NCBI GenBank assembly: GCA_964520655.1
Contig: CAZFNI010000007.1
Location: 6,398 to 70,397 of the forward strand
DNA: 64,000 nucleotides
Direction of reading: 5' to 3'
From: an uncultured Planctomycetales bacterium
Lineage (GTDB): Bacteria; Omnitrophota; Gorgyraeia; Zapsychrales; Fredricksoniimonadaceae
Shown piece after piece: positions 2,981 through 58,818 of this stretch. Positions within the stretch are counted from its first letter, which is position 1, and every line of letters begins with the position of its first letter. The notes beneath the pieces were generated by a model. It was not told where the DNA came from. It saw nothing but the letters and a program-made list of their open reading frames with translations, and ran no database searches. Position numbers and translations under genes: made by a program.

Positions 2981-3138
2981 GGATTTTCAGTTATTAGATC
3001 CCATCAATTATTTTTGATAACCATGTTGTTCTGGGTAGAACGAATGTATGTCTCTGCTGTTCTGGTTAAAAAGGCGTGATCAATTTTTAAAGTTTATAAA
3101 AGAAAGCGTTTGCCTAAAAAGTGGATTTGAGCCTTGAT

Positions 3139-3159
3139 TTTAGACTAGGAAGGTCTAAA
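3139..3159 (+). promoter_or_regulatory. Inverted repeat TTTAGAC-N7-GTCTAAA immediately upstream of the RBS of the second Cys-rich gene. Possible operator or promoter-proximal element.
   Basis: Perfect 7-bp inverted repeat read directly from the sequence, in an AT-rich 185-nt intergenic region, 12-20 nt upstream of AGGAG. Confidence 0.3.
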
Positions 3160-3180
3160 CTTTAAGTGCTAGGAGAAAAA

Positions 3181-4887: not shown

Positions 4888-4929
4888 TATCTATTGAATC
4901 CATTTTAGCATTGATATCGCTTTAAATAT

Positions 4930-6756: not shown

Positions 6757-6760
6757 GCCC

Positions 6761-8575: not shown

Positions 8576-10387
8576 ATGGATAAGAATAAACGGGACATAG
8601 CCCTGGATGCGGCATTTATTCTGATGGTCTTGGGTGGATTTGTGGCCGTGACCTGGGGCCGGTGGGCTCATCCGATCATTGATTACGGCCGCGAGGTGTA
8701 TGTCCCCTGGCGTATCACCGCGGGGGAGGTCTTATATAAGGACCTGGCTTATCTGTTCGGTGCTTTTCCGCCCTATTGGAATGCGCTGCTTTTTAAAGTG
8801 TTCGGCCCATCGATCGCCACCTTGACGGGATTCAACACCCTCCTGGCCCTGGCGGATGTGTTCTTGGTGTACCGGTTCCTGCTTCTGTCCGCCGATCGCT
8901 TGACCGCGCTTTTGGGCGCGGCTGGTTTTTTATTGCTGGCGGTCTGCAATCTGCACATGGCCTACAATATGTATTATTTGGCCCCCTATTCGCATAATGC
9001 CGCGTATGCGGTCTTTTTTGTTTTGTGCGCGTTAAATGTGCTGCCGTCGTTGTTGCGGATATTGGAGCACAGGGCATTCTTTTTATTGGGGCTTTTTCTC
9101 GCTGGAGCGTTGTTATCGAGGCTGGAAATATTCCTGGCCGCGGCGCTGGCGATCTTTACGGCTTTAGGGTTGTATTTTTGGAAATATTCAGTACAAAAAA
9201 ATAAAGCGTTCGCTTATATCGGCACGGCGGTGGCAGGCATTTTCTTTCCGGTATTTGTGTTCTGGGTGTATTTTGTGGCACACTTGCCGCCCTTAGAAGC
9301 ACTTTTTTCTATTATAGGCTATAACCCTCAGTGGCGAGAGGTGGCCCAAACAACACTGTATGCCAAGCAATATGCGGCGTGGCGGGAGAATGTCACGCTG
9401 ATGGCCATGGCGTTGGGAGGCAGCATGTTATTGATCGTCGGCATTGAGATATGCTGCCGGGGCATGATGTTATGGCAAAAGAGCAAAGAGCGGTTGAAAG
9501 CACTGTTGATGTGCGGTCTTTCTGTGTTGTTATATACAGGGGTTCTATATGTTTGCACGGGTGAGAATGTGTATGATGTGTTTCGGGGGCAGATCATCCT
9601 TCAGATCGTATTGGTCGTTTTTTGTTATAAAAGATTCCAGTCTTCCACTGGATTGGAAGATAATATCAGAACATTGTGCCTTTGGGTGTTGTGTGCCTGG
9701 GGGCTTTTCATGCTGGGGAAGATCCCCTTAAAATGTGTTGTCCGGGGCAGCGGCTTGATCTACGGGATCCCGGCGATGCTGACAGCGGTCGTTCTTTTCG
9801 CGTATCTTCTGCCGCAGCGGGCGCAAAGGCTTTACGGCCAGGGGCGTATTGCGGCAATAGCGGCAGCGCTGCTGCTGACATTTTTGTTCTGTCGGGTGTT
9901 GGCGTCTTCGTTGAATAACTTGTCGCTGCGTTTGAAGGCTGTCGGTCAGGGAGCCAATGCATTGCGGACCATTGATTACCCATTGCCATTCGGGCTTGGG
10001 ACCGACATTGAGAAATTCCTTTCTTGGTCGCGGGATCATTTGGGGAACAATGACACCTATGTTGTCCTGCCCGAGGGGGTCATGCTCAATTTCCTGACCC
10101 GTCACCGGATAACGGGCCAGCACATCACCTTTATGCCGGCGGAACTGGCAACGTTCACGGAAGAACGTATGCTGGCAGGGTTGAAGGATGTTCCGCCTGA
10201 TTATGTGGTCATTGTGAATAAGGATAATACGGCTTACGGGGATATGGTTTTTGGGAAGAATTACGCGCCGCGTCTTTATCAGTGGGTCATGACGCGGTAT
10301 TCGCCGGTCTGGGATTCCAGGGTTATCCCCAACCGGTATGCAGGCATAACGGTCTTCAAACGTCAGGAAATACAGGGGCATGAATAG
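8576..10387 (+). CDS. Family A-3 paralog (603 aa), putative GT-C membrane glycosyltransferase.
   Basis: GRWAHPIIDYGREVYVPW ... YKDLAYLFGAFPPYWNALLFKVFG. C-terminal VVLPEGVMLNFLTRHRITGQHITFMPAE. Confidence 0.75.
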   Translation: MDKNKRDIALDAAFILMVLGGFVAVTWGRWAHPIIDYGREVYVPWRITAGEVLYKDLAYLFGAFPPYWNALLFKVFGPSIATLTGFNTLLALADVFLVYRFLLLSADRLTALLGAAGFLLLAVCNLHMAYNMYYLAPYSHNAAYAVFFVLCALNVLPSLLRILEHRAFFLLGLFLAGALLSRLEIFLAAALAIFTALGLYFWKYSVQKNKAFAYIGTAVAGIFFPVFVFWVYFVAHLPPLEALFSIIGYNPQWREVAQTTLYAKQYAAWRENVTLMAMALGGSMLLIVGIEICCRGMMLWQKSKERLKALLMCGLSVLLYTGVLYVCTGENVYDVFRGQIILQIVLVVFCYKRFQSSTGLEDNIRTLCLWVLCAWGLFMLGKIPLKCVVRGSGLIYGIPAMLTAVVLFAYLLPQRAQRLYGQGRIAAIAAALLLTFLFCRVLASSLNNLSLRLKAVGQGANALRTIDYPLPFGLGTDIEKFLSWSRDHLGNNDTYVVLPEGVMLNFLTRHRITGQHITFMPAELATFTEERMLAGLKDVPPDYVVIVNKDNTAYGDMVFGKNYAPRLYQWVMTRYSPVWDSRVIPNRYAGITVFKRQEIQGHE

Positions 10388-12743
10388 GAATTTAGTCACC
10401 GTCGGTGTCATTTCGTTTTCGGCCATCTTGTTCCAGATATGCGTCACGCGCATTCTGGCGGTGACCCTGTGGTATCATTTTGCTTTTCTGGTGATCTCGC
10501 TTTCGATGCTGGGGATGACGGCAGCCGCGATCGCCTGTTTTGTTTTTTGGCCGCGTGTCATAGAAACACAAAGCCGGCGGTATTTTATTATTTTTGCAGC
10601 CCTGTTCGCCTTGCTTGCGCCATTATCCGTTGCTGTTCATTTAAATATCAATTTTCAGGAAGTGGCGTTCAACACGGCCGGATTTTATGCGATCGCGATG
10701 CTCCAGCTGGTGTTTTTGGCGGCGGCGTTCTTCGCCGCAGGGATGGCGTTAAATATCATTTTGTTCAAAGAACAGGAACGGATCGGATTTGTCTATTTCT
10801 GTGATCTGATCGGCGCCGCGGCGGCAAGCCTTCTGGTCATGGCGCTGTTATATTGGGTCAGCCCTATCGCTGTTGTGTTTCTCATTTCATTTTTGTCCTT
10901 ATGGGCAGCCTATGTGCAGGCATCGCATCAGGGCTTACGCCTGGCGCTGCTTTTATCAGCGGGAGTGATGCTGGTATTATTCATCAACAATGACGCGTGG
11001 CATATCTTTAAGATCAGGGCCGTGAAAAGTTATGGGGAGAAAGCGTTCCAGGTGGAGGACAAACCTCTTTTGTTCGAGAAATGGTCGCCGTTCGCGCGTA
11101 CGACGGTGTACAGCCCGACCCGCCATGACAGCGGGACATTATCCATTGAGAATAATTCCGGCGCACCGGCGGCAATGTTCAAATATGACCCGATGCTTCC
11201 GCCAACCCAGCTGAGGACCAGGCTTTACGGTCTTCAGGAAATGGCTTTTGTCCTCAAGAAGAGCGATGAAGCCTTGATCATCGGCTCAGGCGGAGGGAGG
11301 AATTTGCTGGCAGCGTTGCTCTCGGGTCAGGGCCATATCACGGCGGTTGAGGTCAATCCGGTGACTGCGGAGATCGTTACAAAGGATTTTTCGGATTATA
11401 TCGGCCGCATCTTTGAGGATTCCCGCGTTACTTTTCATGTGCAGGAGGGGAGGAATTTCATTGCCCGTACCCAACAGTTGTACGATGTGATCAATATCTC
11501 CATGGTTGAGAGCTGGGGGAATCAGGCCGCGGCCAGCAATTCGTATATTTTTACCGAGAACACCTTGTACACCAGAGAAGCGGTCTGGGATTATGTGCGT
11601 CATTTAAACCCGCAGGGGATACTGAGCATCACCCGGTATGATGATTTTGATGAAGGCTTGCGTTTAGTGAACACGATGATCGACACGCTGCAGGAGAGAG
11701 GGGAAAAAGACCTTAAGGACCAGTTCGTCGTTGTGTTGGGCTACAAGTATCGGGGATCGGTGGGGCTAGCCAATGTCATGTACAAACGCGGCGGATTCAC
11801 CAGGGAAGATGTGGCCAGGATCAGGGATTTTACATCCCGTAACGGTTTTAAGATCATTTACGCGCCGTTCTTGCCGGAGGCAGCAATGAGCGCGCTTCCC
11901 CGGTCGGAATTTTACCGCAAGCTTATCCTCGGGAAAGACAGGAGGGATGATCTGGTGGCGCGGTATCCCCGGATCATCAGCCCATCCACGGACGACAAAC
12001 CATTTTTTTTCTACATGGACCGATTTAAGGATTCATTTGTGTTCAATGCCAATGAACATGCGGCCCGAAGACGCGCTATCCCGATATTGTATGGATTGTG
12101 TGCGGGGGTAGCGGTGCTTAGCCTGATCATGGTCTTTCTGCCGTTGTTAGTTTACCGCCGTACACGTTTAAGCACGCTGTTGCAATGCCGGGTGAATTTG
12201 CTTTATTTTGCAGCGCTGGGAACGGGGTTTATGTTCATTGAGTTATCCCTGATACAGCGACTGACTGTTTTTCTGGGGCATCCCATTTACGCCTTGATCG
12301 TGGTGTTGACCGCCTTGCTGTTAAGCAGCGCTATGGGGAGCTTCTTCTCAGGAAGGATCAAGCCTCTAATGAAAGAGAAGGTGCTTAAGGTTGTGCTGCT
12401 GGCGATCGCCCTCTGTGGCGTTCTTGTGGGGGGAATTATGTTCGATCACCTGGCGCGCTGGATGTATTTACAGCAGCCGCTGCGTGTCATCGTTGCTGTC
12501 GCGACCATCGTTCCTTTGGGGGCTATGCTGGGGATGTGTTTCCCGCTGGGTGTTCATTTGCTGCAGGAGAAGGACAGGCAGCTGATCGTATGGGCGTGGG
12601 GTATCAACGGGATATTTTCTGTCTTAGGATCGGTGCTGGCCATGGTGCTGGCACTGCATATGGGATTTAAAGCCGTGTTCTTGATCGGAGCGGCATGTTA
12701 TTGCGGGGCATGGTTGGCGGTCAAACGCATGGGGAATCAATGA
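10380..12743 (+). CDS. Spermidine-synthase-like (aminopropyl/methyl-transferase fold) domain flanked by N- and C-terminal multi-TM domains (787 aa).
   Basis: The central segment IIGSGGGRNLLAALLSGQGHITAVEVNPVTAEIV ... DVINISMVESWGNQAAASNSYIFTENTLYTREAV matches the spermine/spermidine synthase fold. Hydrophobic N- and C-terminal regions are consistent with the known fused spermidine-synthase-like membrane proteins. Confidence 0.65.
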   Translation: MNRNLVTVGVISFSAILFQICVTRILAVTLWYHFAFLVISLSMLGMTAAAIACFVFWPRVIETQSRRYFIIFAALFALLAPLSVAVHLNINFQEVAFNTAGFYAIAMLQLVFLAAAFFAAGMALNIILFKEQERIGFVYFCDLIGAAAASLLVMALLYWVSPIAVVFLISFLSLWAAYVQASHQGLRLALLLSAGVMLVLFINNDAWHIFKIRAVKSYGEKAFQVEDKPLLFEKWSPFARTTVYSPTRHDSGTLSIENNSGAPAAMFKYDPMLPPTQLRTRLYGLQEMAFVLKKSDEALIIGSGGGRNLLAALLSGQGHITAVEVNPVTAEIVTKDFSDYIGRIFEDSRVTFHVQEGRNFIARTQQLYDVINISMVESWGNQAAASNSYIFTENTLYTREAVWDYVRHLNPQGILSITRYDDFDEGLRLVNTMIDTLQERGEKDLKDQFVVVLGYKYRGSVGLANVMYKRGGFTREDVARIRDFTSRNGFKIIYAPFLPEAAMSALPRSEFYRKLILGKDRRDDLVARYPRIISPSTDDKPFFFYMDRFKDSFVFNANEHAARRRAIPILYGLCAGVAVLSLIMVFLPLLVYRRTRLSTLLQCRVNLLYFAALGTGFMFIELSLIQRLTVFLGHPIYALIVVLTALLLSSAMGSFFSGRIKPLMKEKVLKVVLLAIALCGVLVGGIMFDHLARWMYLQQPLRVIVAVATIVPLGAMLGMCFPLGVHLLQEKDRQLIVWAWGINGIFSVLGSVLAMVLALHMGFKAVFLIGAACYCGAWLAVKRMGNQ

Positions 12744-14566
12744 GATTAAACATGGCAAAGATCGACAGACGAGTTGTGCAAGATGTCATTGTGCTGATGA
12801 TCGTCATGATGTATTTCATCGCAAGGACATGGGGGAAATGGGCCCACCCGATCACGGATTTCGGACGGGAATTGTATATCCCTTGGCGCTTAAGCGAAGG
12901 GCAAATATTATACAGGGACATTGCCTATTTGTTTGGTGCATTTCCCCCCTATTGGAACGCGCTGATGTTCAAGCTGTTCTCCCCGTCGCTGGCCATGTTG
13001 ATAACGATCGACCTTGTGGCGGCTTGTTTATACACAGCATTGATCTACCGCTTTTTATATGTCACAACCAACCGGTCAACAGCATTCATGGGAAGTTTGG
13101 GTTTCATGATGGTGTTCGTCTGTAATTTTATGGGGTATAACATGTATTATCTAACCCCCTATTCTCACAGCAATTTTTATGCCGTTCTCTTTTCTTTGGC
13201 CGCAATGAACCTGTTCCATCTTCTTTCGCAACACTTTAAAAAAAGGATGGTATTCGCGATCGGCCTGTTATTAGGCGGGGTGCTCTTATCACGTCTAGAG
13301 ATATTCCTGACGATCATTATCCCTGTTATTGTTGGTATAGCGATGTTGGTGGATCGACGCGGCAGCAAGGCAGTGATCGCACGGAGTTATGCTGTATTTC
13401 TTTTAGGGCTTGTGATCCCCGTTATCTGTGCATGGGGTTATTTCTTGCAGTATTTCCCAGCGGCACAGGCGCTGCAGAACATCGTGGGATATAATCCCCA
13501 TTGGCAGAAAATATCGGGTGTCTATTTGTACGCAAAACAATATCTCGGCTGGGAAAGGAATGCCTCTCTAACGGCAAAGGCAATAGCCGCGGGCTTTATA
13601 TTTTATGGAGCCATTGATCTGTTGTGCCGGGGTATTCGCGGGGGTCTTGACAATAAAGGGGCATATCGGTTTGCGGGGATGATCTTGCCGGGTTTTTGTA
13701 TGTATGCCTTGATCGTTTATCTGTGTGTGACGCCTTATGTGTACGATTCTTTTCGGGGAGCGGCCATGGCGGCTGTCGTGCTGGCTGCAGCTCTTTTCCG
13801 TCGACTGAAAGGTGTTCCGTCCTTGCCGCAGAGTATTCCAGGTCTGATACCGCTGCTGGTGTGTTGTTTCTGGGCAGTCTTGATGTTGTTCAAGGTGCCG
13901 CTGATGATCACCTTCCGGGGATACGGGCTGGTCTATGGGCTGCCGGCATTTCTGATGGGGGTGGTCCTTTTTGTGTATTTTGTCCCACAGCAGATGCAGC
14001 GGAAATATGGTCAGGGACAGTTGTCGCGGCGACTGGTATCCGCGTTGCTGCTGTTGATATGCGTGATGATATATTCTTCTTCATTCAAAAATTTGTCATC
14101 GAGGAACAAGGCTGTTGGTTCTGGGAATAATATTGTTGTTTATCTGGACAAGAAGTCCTCTTACGGACTGGCGGAAGATATTGAGCGTTTTCTCCTCTGG
14201 GCCAAGGATCATTTGGGCCCCAGGGACACGTATGTTGTTCTTCCTGAGGGAGTAATGCTCAATTTTTTCACCAGGCATGCGATCACCGGTCCGCATGTCA
14301 GCTTTATGCCCGCGGAAATGGCCACGTATGGGCAAGAAGAACTGTTATTGTCGTTAGAACGTGATCCGCCGGACTATGTGCTCATTGTCCACAAAGATAA
14401 TCGCGTGTATCCCGGGATGATATTGGGTAGAAATTATGCGGTAAGCATTGTAGACTGGGTCAAAAGAAATTACCGTTCTGTCTGGGATTCGCGCGAGAAT
14501 AAAAAACGTTTTGTCGGGATCGAAGTGTTTCAACGCGAGGGGATAAATGATCAAGATCTTTATTAG
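12740..14566 (+). CDS. Family A-4 paralog, putative GT-C membrane glycosyltransferase. The ORF track starts at 12695; the ATG at 12740, overlapping the upstream stop as ATGA, is preferred.
   Basis: GKWAHPITDFGRELYIPWRLSEGQILYRDIAYLFGAFPPYWNALMFKLF. C-terminal VVLPEGVMLNFFTRHAITGPHVSFMPAE. The distance from the start to the GKW motif matches the paralogs. Confidence 0.7.
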   Translation: MRLNMAKIDRRVVQDVIVLMIVMMYFIARTWGKWAHPITDFGRELYIPWRLSEGQILYRDIAYLFGAFPPYWNALMFKLFSPSLAMLITIDLVAACLYTALIYRFLYVTTNRSTAFMGSLGFMMVFVCNFMGYNMYYLTPYSHSNFYAVLFSLAAMNLFHLLSQHFKKRMVFAIGLLLGGVLLSRLEIFLTIIIPVIVGIAMLVDRRGSKAVIARSYAVFLLGLVIPVICAWGYFLQYFPAAQALQNIVGYNPHWQKISGVYLYAKQYLGWERNASLTAKAIAAGFIFYGAIDLLCRGIRGGLDNKGAYRFAGMILPGFCMYALIVYLCVTPYVYDSFRGAAMAAVVLAAALFRRLKGVPSLPQSIPGLIPLLVCCFWAVLMLFKVPLMITFRGYGLVYGLPAFLMGVVLFVYFVPQQMQRKYGQGQLSRRLVSALLLLICVMIYSSSFKNLSSRNKAVGSGNNIVVYLDKKSSYGLAEDIERFLLWAKDHLGPRDTYVVLPEGVMLNFFTRHAITGPHVSFMPAEMATYGQEELLLSLERDPPDYVLIVHKDNRVYPGMILGRNYAVSIVDWVKRNYRSVWDSRENKKRFVGIEVFQREGINDQDLY

Positions 14567-16529
14567 GAGCATGTTTATCGCGTTGATCGCCGCATGTTTG
14601 ATCGGCATGTCCGACCTGATATTCATTTCTGTTTCCCCTAAAGCGTTTATCAGTTTCAGGAATATCACTGTTCTGGCCGGAGTTCCGGTCCTGGCGATGA
14701 ACTGGCTGCTGGTCTTTTTCGCAACGTTCATCCTTGTGTTCGTATGTTCTTGGCTGGGAGGCTATGTTGTCGCCGGGATCTTTTCTTTATGGACGATCTT
14801 TTATTTGATCAGTTGGGGGACATATTTAGTCGTTGGTGAGTTTCTTGGTTTCGAGGGGATCCGGTTTGTTTGGTATAACCTCAATGATATCCTCTGGATG
14901 ATGGGACAGATCTCTGCCTGGTATTGGGTGGCTTTGACCGTCCTGGTACTAACGCCGGTCGCTGGTTTTCTTTTGACCAACAGGTTTAGTCATTATTTCA
15001 AGAAGATCATCACCGCTCTTGAAGTGAGGCAAAGAGTAGTTGCTGGGATCGGTGTTCTGGTTTTATGCACGTTGATGGCGATCGCGTTTATTCTTTTTGC
15101 GTCGTTGACCCCCAAACAGAAAGCTGACTTAAGATTACGTGTTTCTCCCCAGGCGACATTGTTCTGGGACCGTCCGCAAAAAGAGATCCTTTTGGGACGC
15201 GCGCATGATCAAGAGCACTTAAGAACACATTACTCCCAGGTTATTGGATGGGAGGATTATCAGAAGATGCAGGTCAAGACCGTCAAGCCTGTTCCTGTGA
15301 TCGTCATAGTCATTGAGTCCATGTGCTGGGACGTTTTGAACAATGCGCAGGTGATGCCCAACACGTACGCTTTAAAACAGGATGGAGTGTATTTACGCGC
15401 GTATACGACCAGCAATCAATCCGATTATGCGTGGCCCGCGATATTCTCGTCACAATATCCCCTGCGGACCAGATATCATTATTATTATCCCAGAGAAAGC
15501 CGCTTCCCGCGCGTTACCATCTATGACGTATTAAAGCAACAGGGATTCGACACGGCTATCTATTCTGCCCAGAATGAGACCTGGGGGGGAATGTTCAATT
15601 ATTTGAATACCGGGTCTTTAGACATGTTCTATTATTCCGATGCCTCTCATGGGGAGGATTATATGTCCCACGAAGATTCCGGGTTCGCTGCCTATACGAA
15701 AAAGTTCAGATCCCCGGGGAAGATCGATGATGGAGTGGTGGTCGATGAGGCCATATCGTGGATCAAAGGAAGGCATCAGGATAAGTTCTTTCTTGGTCTT
15801 AATTTTCAGCGTTCGCATTTCCCCTATACCTGGCCCGACTCATTCCATCCCCCTGATCCGGGAGTAAAGCCAAGCGGCTGGGGATATTCACGCACTCTGG
15901 TCAAGGGTGTAAAGGCCAGGTATTTCAGTGCGTTGCGTTATACGGATGAACAGATCGGACGTTTTATTAATTTCTTAAAAGAGCAGGGGATCTATGAAAA
16001 GAGCATTATTGTATTGATGGGCGACCACGGAGAGGCCTTTTATGAACATGCTTCTCCGATCCATGGGAATGAACTCTTCAATGAAACTGCTTTGACCGGG
16101 TTGTTGATCAAGGGATCAAACGAGCGCATAACCGTCAAAAATTATAAGAATCCGGAACTTCTGGATGTTGCTCCGACGCTATCTTCAATGTTGGGATTGA
16201 CGATACATCCGGCTTTTCAGGGGGAATCACTAGTGGCCCCGTCTTCTTTTTCAAAACCAGTCTTCATCACGGTGCAGTCGGCTATCGCTAAACAGGATGC
16301 GATCGTCGCGGGCGGGTGGAAATTGATCCGGGATCTGCGTAATAACAGGACATCTCTTTTTGATCTTCGACGTGATCCTGGGGAAAGCAAGAATGTTTAT
16401 CAATCCAATCAGGTTCAAGGGCTGAAACTGTTGCTCCAGTTGCTGTATTGGCGCAAGAAGCAGTTAGAGTATTATTCAACACCGGACATGGCAAAAAAAT
16501 ATTATGCCCCCAAGTACTCGTCCCCATAA
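14547..16529 (+). CDS. Membrane-anchored sulfatase-family enzyme (alkaline-phosphatase superfamily), LtaS / phosphoglycerol- or phosphoethanolamine-transferase-like.
   Basis: About 5 N-terminal TM helices followed by a soluble domain with VIVIVIESMCWD and the signature LMGDHGEAF. The architecture matches LtaS/MdoB/EptA-type transferases. Confidence 0.65.
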   Translation: MIKIFIRSMFIALIAACLIGMSDLIFISVSPKAFISFRNITVLAGVPVLAMNWLLVFFATFILVFVCSWLGGYVVAGIFSLWTIFYLISWGTYLVVGEFLGFEGIRFVWYNLNDILWMMGQISAWYWVALTVLVLTPVAGFLLTNRFSHYFKKIITALEVRQRVVAGIGVLVLCTLMAIAFILFASLTPKQKADLRLRVSPQATLFWDRPQKEILLGRAHDQEHLRTHYSQVIGWEDYQKMQVKTVKPVPVIVIVIESMCWDVLNNAQVMPNTYALKQDGVYLRAYTTSNQSDYAWPAIFSSQYPLRTRYHYYYPRESRFPRVTIYDVLKQQGFDTAIYSAQNETWGGMFNYLNTGSLDMFYYSDASHGEDYMSHEDSGFAAYTKKFRSPGKIDDGVVVDEAISWIKGRHQDKFFLGLNFQRSHFPYTWPDSFHPPDPGVKPSGWGYSRTLVKGVKARYFSALRYTDEQIGRFINFLKEQGIYEKSIIVLMGDHGEAFYEHASPIHGNELFNETALTGLLIKGSNERITVKNYKNPELLDVAPTLSSMLGLTIHPAFQGESLVAPSSFSKPVFITVQSAIAKQDAIVAGGWKLIRDLRNNRTSLFDLRRDPGESKNVYQSNQVQGLKLLLQLLYWRKKQLEYYSTPDMAKKYYAPKYSSP

Positions 16530-25459: not shown

Positions 25460-27340
25460 ATGTGCGGGATCATCACCCATTTAAGTCTGGACAACAGCAG
25501 CCGTATTTCTCCTGATACATGCCGGCAGTTAAATGATCTGCTGATCCATCGCGGTCCCGATGATTCCGGTATCTTCTTAAGCGGCAATGTGGCCATGGGC
25601 ATGCGCCGGCTGGCCATCGTGGACTTAGAAGGCGGTCGTCAGCCGATCTCATCGAACGATGGGCGCTACACCATCGTTTTTAACGGGGAGATCTACGATC
25701 ATATGCTGCTGCGCCGTGAACTCTCGGCGCGGGGCAGGACATTTAAGCAGCACAGCGACACCGAGACGATCCTCAATGCCTACATCACCTGGGGAGCGGA
25801 TTGCCTGCGACACTTAAACGGCATGTTCGCGTTTAGCATCTGGGACGACACGGATAAGACTTTGTTCATTGCCCGCGACCGCGTCGGGATGAAGCCGCTT
25901 TACTACGCCCAGGATGCGAAACGCATCTTCTTCTCGTCCGAATTGACCCCGATCGTCCGCAGCCGTTTTTTCGACCTTCAATATAATCTCAAGGCGATCA
26001 GCGACTATTTGAGTTACTGGTATATCTGCGAGCCGGACACGATCTTTTTAAATGTGCATCAGCTTCCTCCGGGGCATTATGCCACCATCAAGGATGGGCG
26101 CATGACGGTCACCCGGTACTGGAGTATTCCCGCTAAGCCTGAGGCGGATGTGCCCTATGCCCAAAGCGTGGAACAGCTGCATGGTTTATTGACCGACGCG
26201 GTCAGGTCCCATTTGGTCGCGGATGTGCCCTTGGGCACATTCTTAAGCGGCGGTATTGATTCGGGCGTGGTGACAGCTTTGGCTAAAAGGCAAGCTGCCG
26301 GGCGATTATGTTCTTTCGGCATCGGTTTCAAAGATAGAAGTTACGATGAGACATCGCTGGCCAAAATGACGGCGGAGAAGCACGGGGTTGATCTGAACGT
26401 CCATATCATGGAGGACATATCGCCCGAACTTCTCGAGGAGATCATCGGCGCATTTGATGAACCGCTGGGGAATGCCAGTTATGTGCCGACCTATCTTTTA
26501 GCCAGGGCCGCTCGCGCCAAACTGAAAGTCGTACTGACGGGCGACGGAGGGGATGAGCTTTTCGGCGGTTATCCGACTTATCAGGCGCCTTACTACCAGA
26601 ATATGTGGCAGCGGACGCCGCGCTTCTTCAAGCAGATCATTAAGCAGTATGTCGCCGGGATGCGGGTGTCGCATCAACGCATTTCCCTTGATTATCGTCT
26701 CAAGCAGCTGATGCAGGGGATAGACCAGGATTATCAGCGCGCGCATATTTCCTGGCGTCAGGTAGCATCGATGGCCGTGCAGCAGCGTTTATGGAGATCT
26801 CATGTTTACGAGAAACTGCGGGGCCATGATCCTTTCATTGTCGCAGAGCGTTATTTCAGCCAGGCCAAAGAACTTTCGGTCATCAATCAGCTCATGTATG
26901 TGGACATCAATACGTTCTTGTTAAATGACCATTTGCGCAAAGTGGACCGCATGACCATGGCCCATGGATTGGAAGCCCGCATCCCGTTCTTGGATCACCG
27001 GATCGTGGAACTCGCCATGCGCATGCCGGCTCAGCATAAGATCAACCTCAGAAGCACAAAAAGAGTGCTCAAATCAGTCGCTGCTCAGTACTTGCCGAAA
27101 CAAGTCATCATGGGCAAGAAGAAGGGGCTGACATCGCCCATTGCCGGCTGGATCCATGGCCCGTTAAAAGAATATTTCAGCGATGTATTAACAGGGGGTA
27201 TTGCCAGCGAATTGTTTGAGTCCAAGGAGATCCGGGTACTGGTCACGGAACACATGGAAAGAAAAAAAGATCACAGCCGTATCTTATGGGCATTATTGAC
27301 GTTGCAGGTCTGGCATCGCAGGATCAGTGTTGGCCCATAA
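25460..27340 (+). CDS. asnB: Asparagine synthase (glutamine-hydrolysing) family amidotransferase.
   Basis: The N-terminal MCGI nucleophile and the PP-loop SGGIDSG (LSGGIDSGVVTALA). 626 aa, typical of AsnB/WbpS-like enzymes found in glycan loci. Confidence 0.85.
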   Translation: MCGIITHLSLDNSSRISPDTCRQLNDLLIHRGPDDSGIFLSGNVAMGMRRLAIVDLEGGRQPISSNDGRYTIVFNGEIYDHMLLRRELSARGRTFKQHSDTETILNAYITWGADCLRHLNGMFAFSIWDDTDKTLFIARDRVGMKPLYYAQDAKRIFFSSELTPIVRSRFFDLQYNLKAISDYLSYWYICEPDTIFLNVHQLPPGHYATIKDGRMTVTRYWSIPAKPEADVPYAQSVEQLHGLLTDAVRSHLVADVPLGTFLSGGIDSGVVTALAKRQAAGRLCSFGIGFKDRSYDETSLAKMTAEKHGVDLNVHIMEDISPELLEEIIGAFDEPLGNASYVPTYLLARAARAKLKVVLTGDGGDELFGGYPTYQAPYYQNMWQRTPRFFKQIIKQYVAGMRVSHQRISLDYRLKQLMQGIDQDYQRAHISWRQVASMAVQQRLWRSHVYEKLRGHDPFIVAERYFSQAKELSVINQLMYVDINTFLLNDHLRKVDRMTMAHGLEARIPFLDHRIVELAMRMPAQHKINLRSTKRVLKSVAAQYLPKQVIMGKKKGLTSPIAGWIHGPLKEYFSDVLTGGIASELFESKEIRVLVTEHMERKKDHSRILWALLTLQVWHRRISVGP

Positions 27341-55596: not shown

Positions 55597-55625
55597 TTGC
55601 TTTATTAACTCGTGAGTGATATAAT
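55597..55625 (+). promoter_or_regulatory. Sigma70-type promoter TTGCTT-N17-TATAAT for the small Cys-rich peptide gene.
   Basis: -35 TTGCTT at 55597..55602, a 17-nt spacer, and a perfect -10 TATAAT at 55620..55625. RBS AAGGAG at 55644..55649, 6 nt before the ATG at 55656. Confidence 0.6.
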
Positions 55626-55655
55626 GCTTATAATTCGACATATAAGGAGAGTGTT

Positions 55656-55919
55656 ATGAAAACAATTTTGATCAGAACGGCCGTGGGTGCGTTGATCTTA
55701 GTGCAAGTCGTATCCATCATGCTGCTCATCGACCAGAAAAAAACAGCAAAGGCACAGTGTATTCCTATCAGTTCAACCATTGCCTGTAATGCGTCTTTTA
55801 ATTTCAATGCGAGCGACGGTTCCTCATGCGGGCCAGTTGCTGTGGCCTGTTCCGGCGGTTTGATGACCGGGATAACCTATACCGGCGGTTCATGCGGCAG
55901 CCCAAGCGGCGGTACATAG
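55656..55919 (+). CDS. Small secreted Cys/Gly/Ser-rich peptide (87 aa precursor with a signal peptide).
   Basis: MKTILIRTAVGALILVQVVSIMLL signal-like N-terminus. The mature region carries 6 Cys in a Gly/Ser/Thr-rich context (CIPISSTIACNASFNFNASDGSSCGPVAVACSGG ... CGSPSGGT). It has its own promoter and terminator. Confidence 0.6.
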   Translation: MKTILIRTAVGALILVQVVSIMLLIDQKKTAKAQCIPISSTIACNASFNFNASDGSSCGPVAVACSGGLMTGITYTGGSCGSPSGGT

Positions 55920-55946
55920 ACATTTGTTCTAAGGAAGTGTTGTTTA

Positions 55947-55992
55947 AAGCCGGTCGTTTTAGTAAGATCAAAATGACCGGCTTTTTCTTTTT
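55947..55992 (+). terminator. Rho-independent terminator (GC-rich stem AGCCGGTC / GACCGGCT followed by a TTTTTCTTTTT tract).
   Basis: The inverted repeat is read directly from the sequence, 28 nt after the stop of the small peptide gene. The T-run ends 12 nt before the next ATG. Confidence 0.75.
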
Positions 55993-56004
55993 GATCCTAT
56001 CGAG

Positions 56005-57462
56005 ATGAAAGTTATGGGTTTTCGCAAGAAATTAGATGATCTATTCGGGATAGACATACGGGCTTTGGCCATTATGCGCATCGCCTTCGCTTTATTATTG
56101 ATCGTGGATCGATTCCGTGATCTACCGTTCGTTAAAGAGTATTATTCGGATGCCGGTCTTTTGCCTCTAGCCTATGGAAAGATGCTGGTGCCACGCGAGT
56201 CGTTTAGTTTATTCTTCTTTAACGGTTCTTTGGAATTCCAGTATTTCTTACTATTCGTGTTGCTTGTGCTAACGGTGGGACTGTTGGTGGGTTATTATAC
56301 GCGCTTTTGCACGGTGATGATGTGGGTCTTGCTGGTCTCGATGCATAACCGCAATTGGCTTATCCTGGGCGCGGAGGATAAACTGTTGGATGTGCTGTTT
56401 CTCTGGTTCATATTCCTGCCGTGGGGGGCATGTTATTCGATCGACAGGCTGCGCCATCCGGAAAGAAGGCCTCCGGCAAGGGTCTTGTCAATGGGGTCCG
56501 CGGCGTTCTTGCTCCAGGTCAGTTTTTTTTACATTTTTGCCGGTTTTCTTAAATCATTCCCGGAATGGACCAGGGATCATAATGCCGGGTATTTGCTCTT
56601 AAGCCTTCATGAATTTGTGAAGCCTTTAGGCACAAGCCTGCTTTCTTATCCCAAATTCTTGGAATGGATGACGGTATTGAGCTTGAACATGGAGCGTTTC
56701 GGCCCGTTCTTCTTTTTTATCCCTTTTCAAACGGTCCCTTTTCGATTTGTCATGGTCATTATCTTTGTGATCTTTCATTTGGTCCTGATGGCCACGTTAG
56801 AGACAGGGATCTTTCAATGGGTGTGTTTGATCATGTTCATCGGGTTCTTACCCACAGCATTTTTTGACAGGATCCTGGGTAAATATGAACCGCACCTCCC
56901 GCATGAGAAGGGAAATGCCCGAGAGAAAAGATCAGATGGAGGGGCGGGATTGCCGTGGTATCTGAACCTGATCGTTGGATTTCTGATCCTTTATGGGTTT
57001 TGTTGGAATTTGCATGATCTCTTAAAGCCTGGCAGCCAGATGCCCAAAAGCGTGAAGTGGATCGGATGCGCGCTTAATCTGCGGCAGCACTGGGGGATGT
57101 TCGCTCCCGGCCCTATGCGTGATGATGGCTGGTTCGTGATCCCAGGGAGATTACGTAATGGGACAGAGGTTGATCTGATGAAGTCAGACGGGGCTCCCGT
57201 CGTTTGGGAAGAGCCTCCTTCTATCATGGATCTAAATCGATCGGATCATTTAACGCTTTATTATATGAATATCCACCGTCCACATTATTCGCATTTTGTC
57301 CACCCCTGGGGGAAATATTTGTGCCGGGAATGGAATGCGACACATTCAGAAGAAGAACAAGTTCTTACATTCAAGATCATATTCATGGAGCGGATGATAC
57401 AAAAAGATCTTCAGCCGCCTAAAATGAGAAAAATCGTTCTGTTCAATCAAAGATGTTTTTGA
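56005..57462 (+). CDS. HTTM-domain (vitamin-K-dependent gamma-carboxylase-like) integral membrane protein.
   Basis: N-terminal FGIDIRALAIMRIAFALLLIVDRFRDLP matches the HTTM-domain opening motif (D-x-R-x-LA-x-[FM]-RI-x-[FL]). Multiple TM helices, 485 aa. Confidence 0.65.
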   Translation: MKVMGFRKKLDDLFGIDIRALAIMRIAFALLLIVDRFRDLPFVKEYYSDAGLLPLAYGKMLVPRESFSLFFFNGSLEFQYFLLFVLLVLTVGLLVGYYTRFCTVMMWVLLVSMHNRNWLILGAEDKLLDVLFLWFIFLPWGACYSIDRLRHPERRPPARVLSMGSAAFLLQVSFFYIFAGFLKSFPEWTRDHNAGYLLLSLHEFVKPLGTSLLSYPKFLEWMTVLSLNMERFGPFFFFIPFQTVPFRFVMVIIFVIFHLVLMATLETGIFQWVCLIMFIGFLPTAFFDRILGKYEPHLPHEKGNAREKRSDGGAGLPWYLNLIVGFLILYGFCWNLHDLLKPGSQMPKSVKWIGCALNLRQHWGMFAPGPMRDDGWFVIPGRLRNGTEVDLMKSDGAPVVWEEPPSIMDLNRSDHLTLYYMNIHRPHYSHFVHPWGKYLCREWNATHSEEEQVLTFKIIFMERMIQKDLQPPKMRKIVLFNQRCF

Positions 57463-57473
57463 CCAATCCGTCA

Positions 57474-57501
57474 TTGCTCTTCGAGAATAAACAGGTATAA
57501 T
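57474..57501 (+). promoter_or_regulatory. Sigma70-type promoter TTGCTC-N16-TATAAT, 7 nt upstream of the ATG. This gives a leaderless or near-leaderless transcript for the coiled-coil gene.
   Basis: -35 at 57474..57479 and -10 TATAAT at 57496..57501. ATG at 57509 with no SD. Confidence 0.5.
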
Positions 57502-57508
57502 ATTATCC

Positions 57509-58477
57509 ATGATTCGGTTATTGGCCGCATTCTTCATATTTTTTCCCGTCGTGGGAGTTCATGCCCAGGAATTGACATCGGCCATGCGTGCTAATGGCCC
57601 GTCGGCAGCAGCTTTGGAGCAATGGAAGAGCGGGGTCGATGCTATCCGGGGGCAAATGGATGTGTTGATACGCCAGAATGACCAGTTGACGCAAGTGTAC
57701 GATCAGGAAAGATCGCAGGAACAGCAATTGCTGCGGGAGATCGAAGAACAGCGTCAGAAAGTGGAGGCGTTAAAGGAATATTTACGGAAACGCGAGGGAA
57801 AAACAGACCAGGACCTGCGCGTGGACGCGTTAAACGGAGAATTACGGATCAAGCGCATGCAGATGGATAAGATTTTGCTCGAGTATAAGACCAGCCATGC
57901 CAAAGCACAGGATGTTCTAGACAGGGTTGAATCCAAACGGATGAAGATCTCCGCGTATGATCTTAAGCCAACAGAGCCAGCCGTTGAAAAAAAGGCCGTA
58001 GAGCCGCGCAAAGACCCGGCCCTGGAGGCTTTGCGCGCGGAATACCAGCGCCAGAAAGCGTCGGAGGCAAGATTAGAAGCCGGTATGGATCCGGCGCGGG
58101 AGAGCAGCGACGCGCTGGAGATCAAGCAGTTAGAGGTCAGGGTTGCGGCGCTGACGGAACAAAAGGCGCAGCTGATGAAAAAACCTTTGGCGGAAGATCA
58201 CAGCGCAGACAAATTGAATTTGATGCAGACTAAGAAGGATGAGTTGGAAAAGAAGATCCGCGCATTTGAGAGCAGGATCGAATCATTGAAGTCAACATCG
58301 GTGGTTTCTGGTTCCTGGGCGGCTGCGCGTAAAGAAATGGTGCGGGCCGTTGTGCAGGGGGATGCGCGTAATAAGAAATTAGCGAATGAGATCAAAGAAC
58401 TAAAAGAGAATATCGCGCTGCTGCGCAGCCAGATAGGCGTTTTGGAAAAACGCGTGCTTTTCAGTAAGAAACGATAA
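57509..58477 (+). CDS. Secreted or periplasmic coiled-coil protein (322 aa).
   Basis: A signal peptide MIRLLAAFFIFFPVVGVHAQ, then ~300 aa of E/K/Q/L/R-rich heptad-like sequence. Confidence 0.65.
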   Translation: MIRLLAAFFIFFPVVGVHAQELTSAMRANGPSAAALEQWKSGVDAIRGQMDVLIRQNDQLTQVYDQERSQEQQLLREIEEQRQKVEALKEYLRKREGKTDQDLRVDALNGELRIKRMQMDKILLEYKTSHAKAQDVLDRVESKRMKISAYDLKPTEPAVEKKAVEPRKDPALEALRAEYQRQKASEARLEAGMDPARESSDALEIKQLEVRVAALTEQKAQLMKKPLAEDHSADKLNLMQTKKDELEKKIRAFESRIESLKSTSVVSGSWAAARKEMVRAVVQGDARNKKLANEIKELKENIALLRSQIGVLEKRVLFSKKR

Positions 58478-58488
58478 GGAGCGATGAA

Positions 58489-58818
58489 ATGGCAAAAGCT
58501 GTCAGCCCGTCCACTGTCAGGGCATTGATCGAGGTGAGCATTACTCCTCAAAAAGACGTGGGTTTTGATCAGATCGCGGAACGCATTTACAGTTATCCGG
58601 AAGTTAAGACGTGTTATCTGTTGTCCGGTGGTTATGATCTATTGGTCGTCGTTGAAGGGGATAATATCCAGACCGTCGCGGATTTTGTGGCGGCAAAACT
58701 ATCGTCCATGGCCAATGTCCGCCAGACCGCAACACATTTCTTGCTGCGGAAATATAAAGAAGAAGGTCAAGTCCTGCATCACAGTAAGAAGGAACGCCGG
58801 CCTAATATTTCGTACTAG
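58489..58818 (+). CDS. Stand-alone Lrp/AsnC C-terminal (RAM) ligand-binding domain protein.
   Basis: 109 aa. IEVSITPQKDVGFDQIAERIYSYPEVKTCYLLSGGYDLLVVVEGDNIQTVADFV matches the AsnC-type regulatory domain pattern. Confidence 0.6.
   Translation: MAKAVSPSTVRALIEVSITPQKDVGFDQIAERIYSYPEVKTCYLLSGGYDLLVVVEGDNIQTVADFVAAKLSSMANVRQTATHFLLRKYKEEGQVLHHSKKERRPNISY

Follow-up and report, generated by a model that had tools for sequence, protein, structure and literature searches.

A putatively secreted small peptide and a GGCX-fold HTTM membrane protein in an apparently recent, species-specific juxtaposition

The window, a stretch of 64,000 nucleotides from an Omnitrophota genome (contig CAZFNI010000007.1), carries three consecutive genes on its forward (+) strand: an ORF for an 87-aa peptide precursor (55656–55919), a gene for a 485-aa polytopic membrane protein with a Pfam HTTM domain (PF05090; 56005–57462, or 482 aa from an alternative start at 56014), and a gene for a 322-aa, Glu-rich coiled-coil protein (57509–58477) with a signal-peptide-like N-terminus (MIRLLAAFFIFFPVVGVHAQ/E). 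An earlier note on this DNA had described the first as an autonomous and probably highly expressed unit, equipped with a consensus promoter, a strong RBS and an intrinsic terminator, encoding a secreted peptide and followed by an HTTM (GGCX-like) neighbour and a secreted coiled-coil protein. Each of the three signals is present in the sequence, and together they support the autonomous unit; the product looks Sec-exported from its signal-like N-terminus and AKA motif; Pfam, AF2 and Foldseek agree on the HTTM neighbour; and the coiled-coil gene lies where it had been placed.

The promoter of the peptide gene, read from the sequence at 55597–55634 (+), consists of a -35 TTGCTT (55597–55602), a 17-nt spacer and a TG-extended -10 TATAAT (55620–55625), with a second, overlapping TATAAT at 55629–55634; a promoter scan scored an alternative pairing, TTAACT-18-TATAAT, at 10/12 matches. 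Since promoter-like matches around the gene are not rarer than chance (three found against 5.0 expected), the call rests on position and on the counterpart TTGATT-17-TACAAT, which occupies a similar place in the relative L003. A Shine-Dalgarno sequence, AAGGAGA (55644–55650, +), stands 6 nt 5′ of the ATG at 55656, and SD-like sequences (AAGGAGA, AAGGAA or GGGAGGG) precede the peptide gene in the relatives L003, L001 and L013. Downstream, an intrinsic terminator (55946–55992, +) is formed by a hairpin at 55946–55984 with a stem of ~15–16 bp (AAAGCCGGUCGUUUU / AAAAUGACCGGCUUU) and a U-tract running to ~55992. The hairpin folds at -25.1 kcal/mol (z = -3.8), a value that no shuffle out of 200 matched; it was missed by a consensus terminator scan whose printed rule covers loops of 3–8 and ≤20 pairs. 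The terminator is absent from the spacers between the peptide and coiled-coil genes of L001, L003 and L013, and an Rfam scan of the whole window returned no family match. Taken together, these signals indicate that the peptide gene is transcriptionally autonomous.

Codon-level comparison shows the ORF to be a real gene, with saturated synonymous sites and a conserved N-terminus. Over the first 33–34 codons, pS is 0.74–0.87 among the window, L001 and L003 and reaches 1.09 in pairs with L013, while pN is 0.11–0.20 in the former and up to 0.31 with L013; the signal region has pS 0.74–0.84, and in the mature part pN is 0.39–0.43. The family itself appears to be tiny, comprising four lineages, all apparently close Omnitrophota relatives. 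A search of a set of ~5.8 billion proteins gave three matches, and exhaustive HMMER searching of 1.84 billion representatives added only one further, distant member (P0067). No relatives were found in JGI metagenomes or in viral contigs, GTDB species genomes contained the peptide only in an already known MAG, and neither Pfam, NCBIfam, PHROGs nor PADLOC gave a match.

Residues 1–33 of the precursor resemble a Sec-type signal or anchor, with K2 and R7, an 18-residue hydrophobic core and then DQKKTAKA. TAKA followed by Q or E is invariant in all four lineages, and cleavage is predicted, as judged by eye, at AKA|Q; the long h-region means that the N-terminus could equally stay as a membrane anchor. 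The predicted mature peptide has 54 aa, of which 52% are S/T/G/N, and contains five Cys, one Asp and no Glu, Lys or Arg. Three of the five Cys (C35, C44 and C65) are conserved, and the orthologue P0002 likewise has five. A lipobox ([LVI][ASTVI][GAS]C) is absent from the signal end, where the first Cys is preceded by KAQ (KAQ-C), or by ESY in P0067 (ESY-C). The N-terminus shows the n-, h- and c-regions and AKA of Sec-type signals, no double-glycine, NHLP or other RiPP/class II bacteriocin leader was found, and no C39/ABC, LanB/C or rSAM genes occur within ±5 kb. An AF2 model of the peptide was too poor to use (pLDDT 58).

The HTTM protein matches PF05090 over residues 16–282, scoring 36.5 bits where the cut-off is 27.7 (E = 5e-9); scans against NCBIfam, PHROGs and PADLOC returned nothing for it. 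Its AF2 model (pLDDT 90, pTM 0.90) shows a GGCX-like fold that includes the C-terminal alpha/beta domain, predicted to be extracytoplasmic. When this model was compared with the PDB by Foldseek, only GGCX entries were returned at E ≤ 0.01; the best reached E = 1e-8 over ~480 columns, and the top 15 spanned 1e-8 to 4e-6 over ~470–490 columns, although the TM-score normalised to the length of GGCX is 0.38 (485 aa against 758 aa). The single sequence found no match among PDB sequences, and a profile of 24 homologues reached GGCX with E = 8e-9 and the lysine aligned. That lysine, K183, is invariant in the 24 homologues and aligns to K218 of GGCX (FAGFLKSFPEW here, IAGVKKLDADW in GGCX), the catalytic base that deprotonates vitamin K hydroquinone (10.1101/2025.02.09.637231). 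The carboxylase-like catalytic residues that the earlier note had proposed to look for are thus represented by an equivalent of K218; W157 and H160 of GGCX gave no consistent alignment to the protein. On the strength of the model and alignment, the protein is a predicted GGCX-fold membrane protein that keeps the quinol-deprotonating lysine. The likeness to GGCX extends to the Pfam domain, the fold and this lysine, whereas no substrate with a propeptide and Gla domain is encoded nearby, the adjacent peptide is free of Glu, and the protein is much the shorter of the two. Neither it nor its neighbours contain a DCC1-like domain (PF04134), and it has no match to DUF5819. No clear promoter or SD for the HTTM gene was visible in the sequence or the scan and, with a strong terminator between the two genes, co-expression with the peptide is uncertain.

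The coiled-coil gene has a promoter at 57472–57501 (+; CATTGCTC...GGTATAAT), with a -35 TTGCTC (57474–57479), a 16-nt spacer and a -10 TATAAT (57496–57501), and its ATG lies 7 nt past the -10 in a leaderless layout. The same motif, as TTGCCT-17-TATAAT-7nt-ATG, precedes the gene in L001, L003 and L017. Domain scans of the protein gave only weak, coiled-coil-type matches, and only four homologues were found in the 5.8-billion-protein set. Identity is 53–56% between the window and L001, L003 or L017 and 59–68% among those three, against 89–97% for the housekeeping genes downstream. By these comparisons, the peptide and the coiled-coil protein both evolve fast.

Synteny and alignment define a species-specific segment of ~1.55 kb (55920–57471, +), which runs from the stop codon of the peptide gene to the promoter of the coiled-coil gene and contains the terminator and the HTTM gene. 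Relative to L001, L003 and L013, the segment is present only in the window and in the conspecific L007, which has the same peptide–HTTM–coiled-coil layout. In L001/L002, L003/L004 and the distant L013, the coiled-coil gene comes straight after the peptide gene, without an intervening HTTM gene, and the constant partner of the peptide is therefore the coiled-coil protein with its own conserved, leaderless-type promoter. The GC content of the segment is 46%, against 50–51% in its neighbours, with similar GC3. In most of the compared genes (the exceptions being Aminotran_4 and the peptide), L001 and L003 resemble one another more than either resembles the window, and because they group together and the slot of the more distant L013 also lacks the HTTM gene, parsimony favours a single gain over repeated exact losses. 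Viral contigs contained neither the peptide nor the HTTM protein, and nothing thus points to an origin in phages or mobile elements.

It follows that members of the peptide family need not be partnered by an HTTM protein, since other lineages have the peptide without an adjacent HTTM gene, and the sequence comparisons identify the pairing as a juxtaposition of recent date, confined to this species, rather than a conserved system. The co-occurrence check suggested by the earlier note thus turned out against the pairing, both in relatives, where outside the species the coiled-coil gene comes next, and across HTTM genes, as the peptide had no homologue at 55 other HTTM loci. What bacterial relatives of the blood-clotting carboxylase do is poorly understood, and the locus reveals no conserved peptide–HTTM system that would explain it. 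What it does reveal is a clade-restricted, fast-evolving, putatively secreted pair of peptide and coiled-coil protein, which may bear on the surface biology of ultra-small bacteria.

A looser association emerged from the neighbourhoods of HTTM homologues. Signal-peptide ORFs rich in S/T/G or Cys and lying within 300 bp were counted 40 times in the 95 slots next to HTTM genes, compared with 25 across 184 kb of flank farther out, in a crude screen whose first, strict version (40–129 aa, ≥3 Cys, within 400 bp) recovered only the window's own peptide, so that the association is seen only after the post-hoc choice of relaxing the size limit and admitting S/T/G-rich proteins. In 27 of 32 loci of the Hymenobacter/Pontibacter type, an S/T/G-repeat ORF lies directly upstream on the same strand; most of the S/T/G association stems from a single clade of family rank and hence represents few independent events. 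In the closest HTTM subclade, Cys-containing secreted proteins are adjacent or two genes away in six of seven loci, with 8–78 Cys in five of them, while L018 has a G/P/T/S-rich ORF that contains Cys. Small secreted Cys-rich proteins stand by the HTTM genes of L020 (167 aa, nine Cys) and L021 (155 aa, eight Cys), and many homologues have a DCC1-type thiol-disulfide oxidoreductase either fused to them or encoded next door. The S/T/G-rich neighbours have almost no Glu and, apart from a lipobox Cys, no Cys; a role in thiol redox therefore cannot explain all cases. Homology of the peptide to the Cys-rich neighbours elsewhere was rejected (all E > 0.05 in a 10-sequence database), and beyond compositional similarity no shared partner family was found.

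As for the peptide-modification hypothesis of the earlier note, a conserved pairing and the carboxylation of Glu both fall away, the latter because the whole precursor lacks Glu and classical gamma-carboxylation of the peptide is thereby excluded. What stands is the looser link just described, which makes a lineage-specific client relationship plausible. That lysine-keeping HTTM proteins repeatedly adjoin secreted proteins or ORFs that lack Glu, whether Cys-rich or built of Ser/Thr/Gly repeats, is a testable lead, and it points to a substrate or a chemistry other than classical gamma-carboxylation.

The explanation that we prefer, and that we regard as roughly an even bet when taken whole, is a small, fast-evolving secretome islet into which an HTTM gene has newly been inserted. 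The peptide would most likely be Sec-exported and cut after AKA to release a 54-residue, Ser/Gly/Thr-rich peptide described as uncharged, in which the three conserved and two extra Cys may form disulfides and the N-terminal Gln could cyclise. The HTTM gene, with the terminator upstream of it, would have been inserted between the peptide and coiled-coil genes in this species only, and its product would probably act on exported proteins on the outer side of the cytoplasmic membrane. It may be a general maturation factor for exported Cys-rich or S/T/G-rich proteins, a view suggested by the habit of its homologues of adjoining such secreted ORFs and of being fused or adjacent to DCC1. The 87-aa peptide would then plausibly be one client among others, acquired only recently, as opposed to a substrate to which the protein is dedicated; a functional link between peptide and HTTM protein is, from the sequence, possible.

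A related analogy is offered by LMF1, a membrane factor needed to fold secreted, disulfide-containing lipases. Some homologues of the window protein have precomputed matches to the LMF1 family (PF06762); LMF1, however, is eukaryotic and located in the ER, and the window protein itself scores as HTTM only.

It is also conceivable, if somewhat unlikely, that the two genes form a dedicated pair like SdpB/SdpC, in which the 87-aa precursor is the specific target of modification or processing by the HTTM protein (e.g. by oxidative cross-linking, Asp or backbone carboxylation, or cleavage), which would itself be made in small amounts from transcripts that read through the terminator. The genes are 85 nt apart on the same strand, the second has no evident promoter or SD, and a structural gene followed by a leaky terminator and a maturation gene is a classic layout. 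Moreover, chance would seldom place the insertion right next to a secreted peptide of similar composition, and the small Cys-rich proteins of L020 and L021 show that such neighbours recur. Precedents also exist, among which the SdpABC/YitPOM toxin-maturation systems of Bacillus subtilis are the nearest experimental one for an HTTM protein with a secreted peptide, SdpB being presumably an HTTM-family membrane protein (Pfam/NCBIfam). In both settings a precursor, Sec-secreted in B. subtilis and putatively so here, is encoded beside a polytopic membrane protein, which in B. subtilis is required for maturation: SdpA and SdpB are needed to process secreted SdpC (PMC6818787). HTTM proteins are likewise encoded together with ribosomal peptide precursors in linaridin RiPP clusters (e.g. 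CrdG), with a role that is unknown (PMC9927463), and MloH of the malonomycin pathway carboxylates an aspartyl and not a glutamyl residue (10.64898/2026.08.19.745780). In MloH and the HTTM-DCC1/DUF5819 pairs, a bacterial HTTM enzyme is fused to an extracytoplasmic domain or has one as its partner, a feature shared by the many DCC1-fused or DCC1-adjacent homologues of the window protein.

Against a dedicated pair, three lineages have peptide orthologues without an adjacent HTTM gene, no sequence feature separates the window peptide from them (five Cys occur in P0002 as well), the intervening hairpin is a strong terminator, and the peptide offers no Glu. The precedents also differ in detail. An NCBIfam scan at E ≤ 1 gave no SdpA, SdpB or SdpC match for either protein, and the locus has no SdpA-like, SdpI/SdpR-type or other immunity genes, its neighbours being a class IV aminotransferase, the coiled-coil protein, an AsnC-domain protein and an aminotransferase. 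The SDP/YIT toxin segment is hydrophobic and derived from a 203-aa precursor, whereas the mature part here is S/G/T-rich and its pairing with the HTTM gene is not conserved. No other linaridin genes are present and the precursor has what looks like a Sec-type signal in place of a RiPP leader; the window protein, for its part, carries neither DCC1 nor DUF5819 and has no PKS/NRPS context.

Mere coincidence of position is unlikely but deserves consideration: the slot 5′ of the coiled-coil gene could be an insertion hotspot for accessory envelope genes, with the HTTM protein serving some unrelated purpose, for instance in the chemistry of quinones or lipids, or acting on other envelope proteins, among them the two large, Cys-rich TSP1-like proteins encoded ~50 kb upstream. 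The slot is variable, as L017 lacks the peptide gene and has in this place a divergent membrane protein of 406 aa together with a Cys-rich, TSP1-like protein. The latter is homologous (E = 6e-22) to TSP1-like secreted proteins of the window itself, which have 90 and 74 Cys and are encoded at 533–4887, ~50 kb upstream. The 406-aa protein was not counted as an HTTM homologue, given a sub-threshold MauE match, an hhalign probability of 13% and a BLASTP E of 33. The heterogeneity of HTTM neighbourhoods would also suit coincidence; the enrichment of secreted low-complexity or Cys-rich ORFs directly beside HTTM homologues would not, nor would the tight, co-oriented position of the HTTM gene behind the peptide gene, which fits that pattern.

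A bolder reading, and one that we consider doubtful, is that this HTTM subfamily comprises menaquinol-dependent maturation enzymes for exported, Glu-free proteins rich in Ser/Thr/Gly or Cys. They would install a change other than Glu gamma-carboxylation (e.g. an oxidative cross-link, or Asp or backbone carboxylation), with the 87-aa peptide as a minimal natural substrate recruited upon insertion. If true, this would provide the first general function for bacterial GGCX homologues.

Very improbable is a true GGCX-like enzyme–substrate pair in which gamma-carboxylation by the HTTM protein is directed at the coiled-coil protein, whose gene lies 47 nt downstream on the same strand. The coiled-coil protein is Glu-rich and predicted to be exported, and the HTTM protein retains the catalytic lysine and GGCX fold; yet L001, L003 and L004 carry the coiled-coil gene without an HTTM gene at the locus, the gene has its own conserved promoter, no coiled-coil neighbour was seen at any other HTTM locus, and the enzyme is far shorter than GGCX, with the low TM-score given above. 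Finally, the prospect that the 87-aa ORF is a non-functional chance frame with chance signals is negligible: promoter-like matches do occur at chance frequency and the ORF has no family annotation, but other pipelines also call it as a gene, relatives have SD and promoter elements at similar places, and its retention in four lineages despite saturated synonymous change, with a strongly conserved N-terminus and three Cys, means that the codon-level pS/pN comparison effectively refutes it.

The small-peptide gene is real and autonomous, and the promoter, ribosome-binding site, terminator hairpin and two downstream reading frames described in the earlier note are all present in the sequence. The 87-aa ORF (55656-55919, + strand), as read from the sequence, is preceded on the same strand by a -35 element TTGCTT (55597-55602), a 17-nt spacer and a -10 element TATAAT (55620-55625) with TG two bases before it, and by a ribosome-binding site, AAGGAGA (55644-55650); a second, overlapping TATAAT (55629-55634, +) gives an alternative promoter scored 10/12 by scan. 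Downstream lies a terminator hairpin (55946-55984, +) with a U-tract, folding at -25.1 kcal/mol (z = -3.8), which is absent from the output of the consensus terminator scan; no Rfam family was matched anywhere in the window. The precursor has neither a lipobox nor a RiPP-type leader, and it is probably exported by Sec, cleaved at AKA and disulfide-bonded. Its predicted mature form (cut between AKA and Q) has 54 residues, 52% of them Ser/Thr/Gly/Asn, with five Cys, one Asp and zero Glu, Lys or Arg; lacking glutamate, it is not a possible substrate for a classical carboxylase. The AF2 model of the peptide shows a low-confidence helix and a small sheet only.

It is the coiled-coil gene, and not the HTTM gene, that is conserved as the peptide's partner. 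In contigs L001 and L002 (peptide relative P0002) and L003 and L004 (P0003), the genes run from a chorismate-binding enzyme through class IV aminotransferase, peptide, a 301-329-aa protein and AsnC-domain protein to an aminotransferase. The 301-329-aa protein, without a Pfam match, is the orthologue (53-56% identity) of the signal-peptide coiled-coil protein encoded next after HTTM in the window (57509-58477, +), and no HTTM gene separates it from the peptide in these four contigs, the order otherwise being that of the window. In the more distant L013, a 522-bp contig bearing the distant relative P0067, the slot likewise lacks HTTM, and a signal-peptide ORF with a coiled-coil-like, not HTTM-like, N-terminus begins 44 nt past the peptide stop. 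The window layout recurs only in L007, from the same species, where HTTM is 96% identical. The expected conservation of the HTTM-peptide adjacency thus fails in L001-L004 and L013, and HTTM at this position is species-specific.

A conserved sequence, CATTGCCTCTTCGAGAATAAAAAGGTATAAT-7nt-ATG, lies within ~20 nt of the peptide stop in L001 and L003 and immediately past the HTTM stop in the window (57472-57511); since these positions fix the junctions, the extra segment (~55920-57471) comprises the terminator and the HTTM gene. Downstream housekeeping proteins are 89-97% identical among the lineages of the window, L001, L003 and L017 (a fifth lineage with the coiled-coil gene), and these are therefore close relatives. 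L001 and L003 resemble each other more than either resembles the window in pabB, RNase T, an LPG-synthase-like gene, the coiled-coil gene and AsnC, the exceptions being Aminotran_4 and the peptide. With L013 as outgroup, a single gain of HTTM in the window's lineage would be the parsimonious account. The GC content of the HTTM gene is 46% versus 50-51% in its neighbours, with similar GC3.

The HTTM-domain ORF (56005-57462, +) matches PF05090 at E = 5e-9, above the gathering score, and its product has the GGCX fold and catalytic lysine. The AF2 model, with 24 homologues as input, is confident (pLDDT 90, pTM 0.90), and a PDB fold search returned only GGCX entries at E <= 0.01 (best E = 1e-8, query TM-score 0.5), aligning ~480 columns with the C-terminal domain included. 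Moreover, the family profile matches GGCX at E = 8e-9 and aligns the family-invariant K183 (FAGFLKSFPEW) with GGCX K218 (IAGVKKLDADW), an alignment that is reliable for the lysine only and not for other active-site residues. In GGCX, vitamin K hydroquinone is deprotonated by K218 acting as base, and a K218A mutant is inactive (10.1101/2025.02.09.637231). The proposed check for carboxylase-like catalytic residues thus turned up the equivalent lysine. With all three tested features present, the protein belongs to the HTTM/GGCX family; no NCBIfam model was matched, that of the SdpB family included. It probably acts on exported proteins.

The contexts of the closest HTTM homologues (40-50% identity) differ from one another and hold no peptide homologue. 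A metagenome scan added 62 loci to the sample. A strict screen for small ORFs with at least three Cys, covering 55 homologue loci and the window, found only the window's own peptide. A looser, post hoc screen, with criteria relaxed after a first look and crude gene calls, found 40 signal-peptide, S/T/G- or Cys-rich ORFs within 300 bp of HTTM over 95 adjacent slots, and 25 in 184 kb of farther flank; the S/T/G pattern came mostly from one family-level clade. Hymenobacter/Pontibacter-type loci carry an S/T/G-repeat ORF directly upstream on the same strand in 27/32 and downstream in 15/28 (13/15 same strand; 11/15 with a lipobox and often an Asp run behind it), and the ORFs on both sides are essentially without Glu. 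The upstream ORF is small, with a signal peptide, T/S/G repeats and basic patches; the downstream one, also small, often has a lipobox, a poly-Asp run and then T/S/G repeats. Loci with this two-small-ORF flank are L026, L028, L029, L033-L040, L042-L048, L051, L056-L059, L061, L062, L064 and L067.

In the closest subclade (44-50% identity, L018-L023), Cys-containing secreted proteins are adjacent or two genes off in 6/7 loci, with 8-78 Cys in L019-L023 and a Cys-containing G/P/T/S-rich ORF in L018; a YYPSPSGxY motif is common to several of them, and the N-terminus of one is type IV pilin-like. The N-terminal motif (YYPSPSGxY / YPAPxGxYN) marks a secreted family adjoining these homologues (L019 149-2263; L020 3212-3715; L021 2065-3951 and 5547-6014; L023 748-2709), of which 4/5 members are Cys-rich (8-58 Cys), against 6 Cys in the one from L023; their low-complexity tails vary and contain (TN)n and (GTPT)n runs. 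L022 113-2773 encodes a pilin-like protein with 78 Cys. A TSP1-repeat protein also lies near HTTM in L016, where tandem HTTM paralogues (4001-7170), the second of which carries a fused DCC1-like thiol-disulfide oxidoreductase domain, come after a FIST / histidine kinase / GGDEF set and adjoin this 574-aa, 76-Cys protein. DCC1-like oxidoreductases are fused or adjacent in many HTTM homologues; the window HTTM does not belong to an HTTM-DCC1 module. None of these HTTM neighbours is homologous to the window's peptide.

A functional pairing of HTTM and peptide, as first suggested, therefore lacks conservation in relatives but is kept alive, as a lineage-specific possibility, by the secreted low-complexity proteins that HTTM genes elsewhere often neighbour. 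We give about an even chance to HTTM serving generally in the maturation of exported proteins rich in Cys or S/T/G: its gene would have inserted next to that for one such protein, and the peptide would be matured as a plausible, not dedicated, client among them. The most useful outcome is a testable lead in culturable Bacteroidota.

That HTTM and peptide form a dedicated, SdpB/SdpC-like pair is doubtful given the relatives, although known systems lend it some colour. SdpB is an HTTM-family membrane protein. In B. subtilis it serves a secreted peptide, with a different kind of precursor (PMC6818787); linaridin clusters encode an HTTM gene with a peptide precursor (PMC9927463), and MloH is a bacterial HTTM with non-Glu (aspartyl) carboxylation (10.64898/2026.08.19.745780). 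These precedents make action of an HTTM on an exported peptide plausible as a mechanism class, though membership fails: the SdpABC system gave no model match, SdpA and immunity genes are absent and the precursor is of a different kind, nor does the locus belong among RiPP or bacteriocin loci.

Pure coincidence of HTTM and peptide in a variable slot is unlikely in view of the secreted neighbours elsewhere. What lies just before the coiled-coil gene does vary, because L017 keeps that gene and its promoter motif, lacks the peptide gene and has two others in the slot, one for a divergent membrane protein of 406 aa and one for a secreted, TSP1-like protein rich in Cys; the former, with a sub-threshold MauE match only, is not demonstrably an HTTM. 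It is very improbable that HTTM carboxylates the adjacent coiled-coil protein, which is Glu-rich and is retained in L001-L004 with no HTTM gene in front of it. The coiled-coil and peptide families are equally narrow (4 proteins found for the former). The coiled-coil gene's sigma-70-type promoter (TTGCCT/TTGCTC-16/17-TATAAT; window 57472-57511, L001 6270-6311, L003 6018-6051, L017 2650-2690) is highly conserved in its DNA sequence despite saturated synonymous sites in neighbouring genes, and the ATG lies exactly 7 nt past the -10 without an SD, a leaderless-mRNA layout. The 109-aa protein at 58489-58818, an AsnC/Lrp ligand-binding domain alone without an HTH, is 89-97% identical across lineages, whereas the adjoining coiled-coil protein is just 53-68% identical.

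The peptide family is very rare. A search of 5.8 billion proteins found three relatives (P0001, 99% identical; P0002, 58%; P0003, 58%), and an exhaustive family-profile HMMER pass over 1.84 billion representatives added the distant P0067 and one spurious repeat protein; the sole match in GTDB species genomes was P0003's contig, a Candidatus Omnitrophota MAG, and JGI metagenomes and viral contigs gave none. The N-terminus is strongly conserved (35 alignment columns invariant across the closest four sequences, two being 99% identical), with DQKKTAKA invariant, C35, C44 and C65 conserved and the rest of the C-terminal part variable. Codon comparison of the window, L001 and L003 gave a peptide pS of 0.73-0.87, with synonymous sites saturated; pN was 0.11-0.20 for the signal region and 0.39-0.43 for the mature part, the latter being higher than in any other gene compared (AsnC-domain protein 0.01-0.03; RNase T 0.04-0.08; coiled-coil 0.19-0.30). 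By this conservation and codon pattern the gene is real, its export/anchor segment under constraint and its mature part diverging rapidly, and a chance ORF of 87 aa is hardly credible. The peptide and coiled-coil genes are the ones that evolve fast in this neighbourhood. On the short contig L013, an ORF ending just upstream of P0067 (1-30) has a Gly-rich tail (GGGGSGGY before the stop) and might represent another small gene for a Gly-rich peptide, in tandem with the first.

Elsewhere in the window, 533-4887 encodes two proteins, secreted or anchored, that are rich in S/T/G/N and very rich in Cys (90 Cys in 815 aa and 74 Cys in 573 aa), both bearing thrombospondin-type WxxWxxC motifs (WTVWSGC, WSGWGAC); in the former (533-2980), the N-terminal ~170 aa are homologous to the TSP1-hitting slot protein of L017 (E = 6e-22). 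Directly downstream of these TSP1-like proteins, 4930-50445 holds ~20 consecutive + strand genes for large polytopic membrane proteins with 7-14 predicted TM segments each, five having YfhO C-terminal matches, along with a sulfatase/LtaS-like gene (14547-16529), an asparagine synthase (25460-27340) and a spermidine-synthase-like domain (10380-12743), and the whole has the look of a giant cluster for glycosylation or assembly of the envelope.
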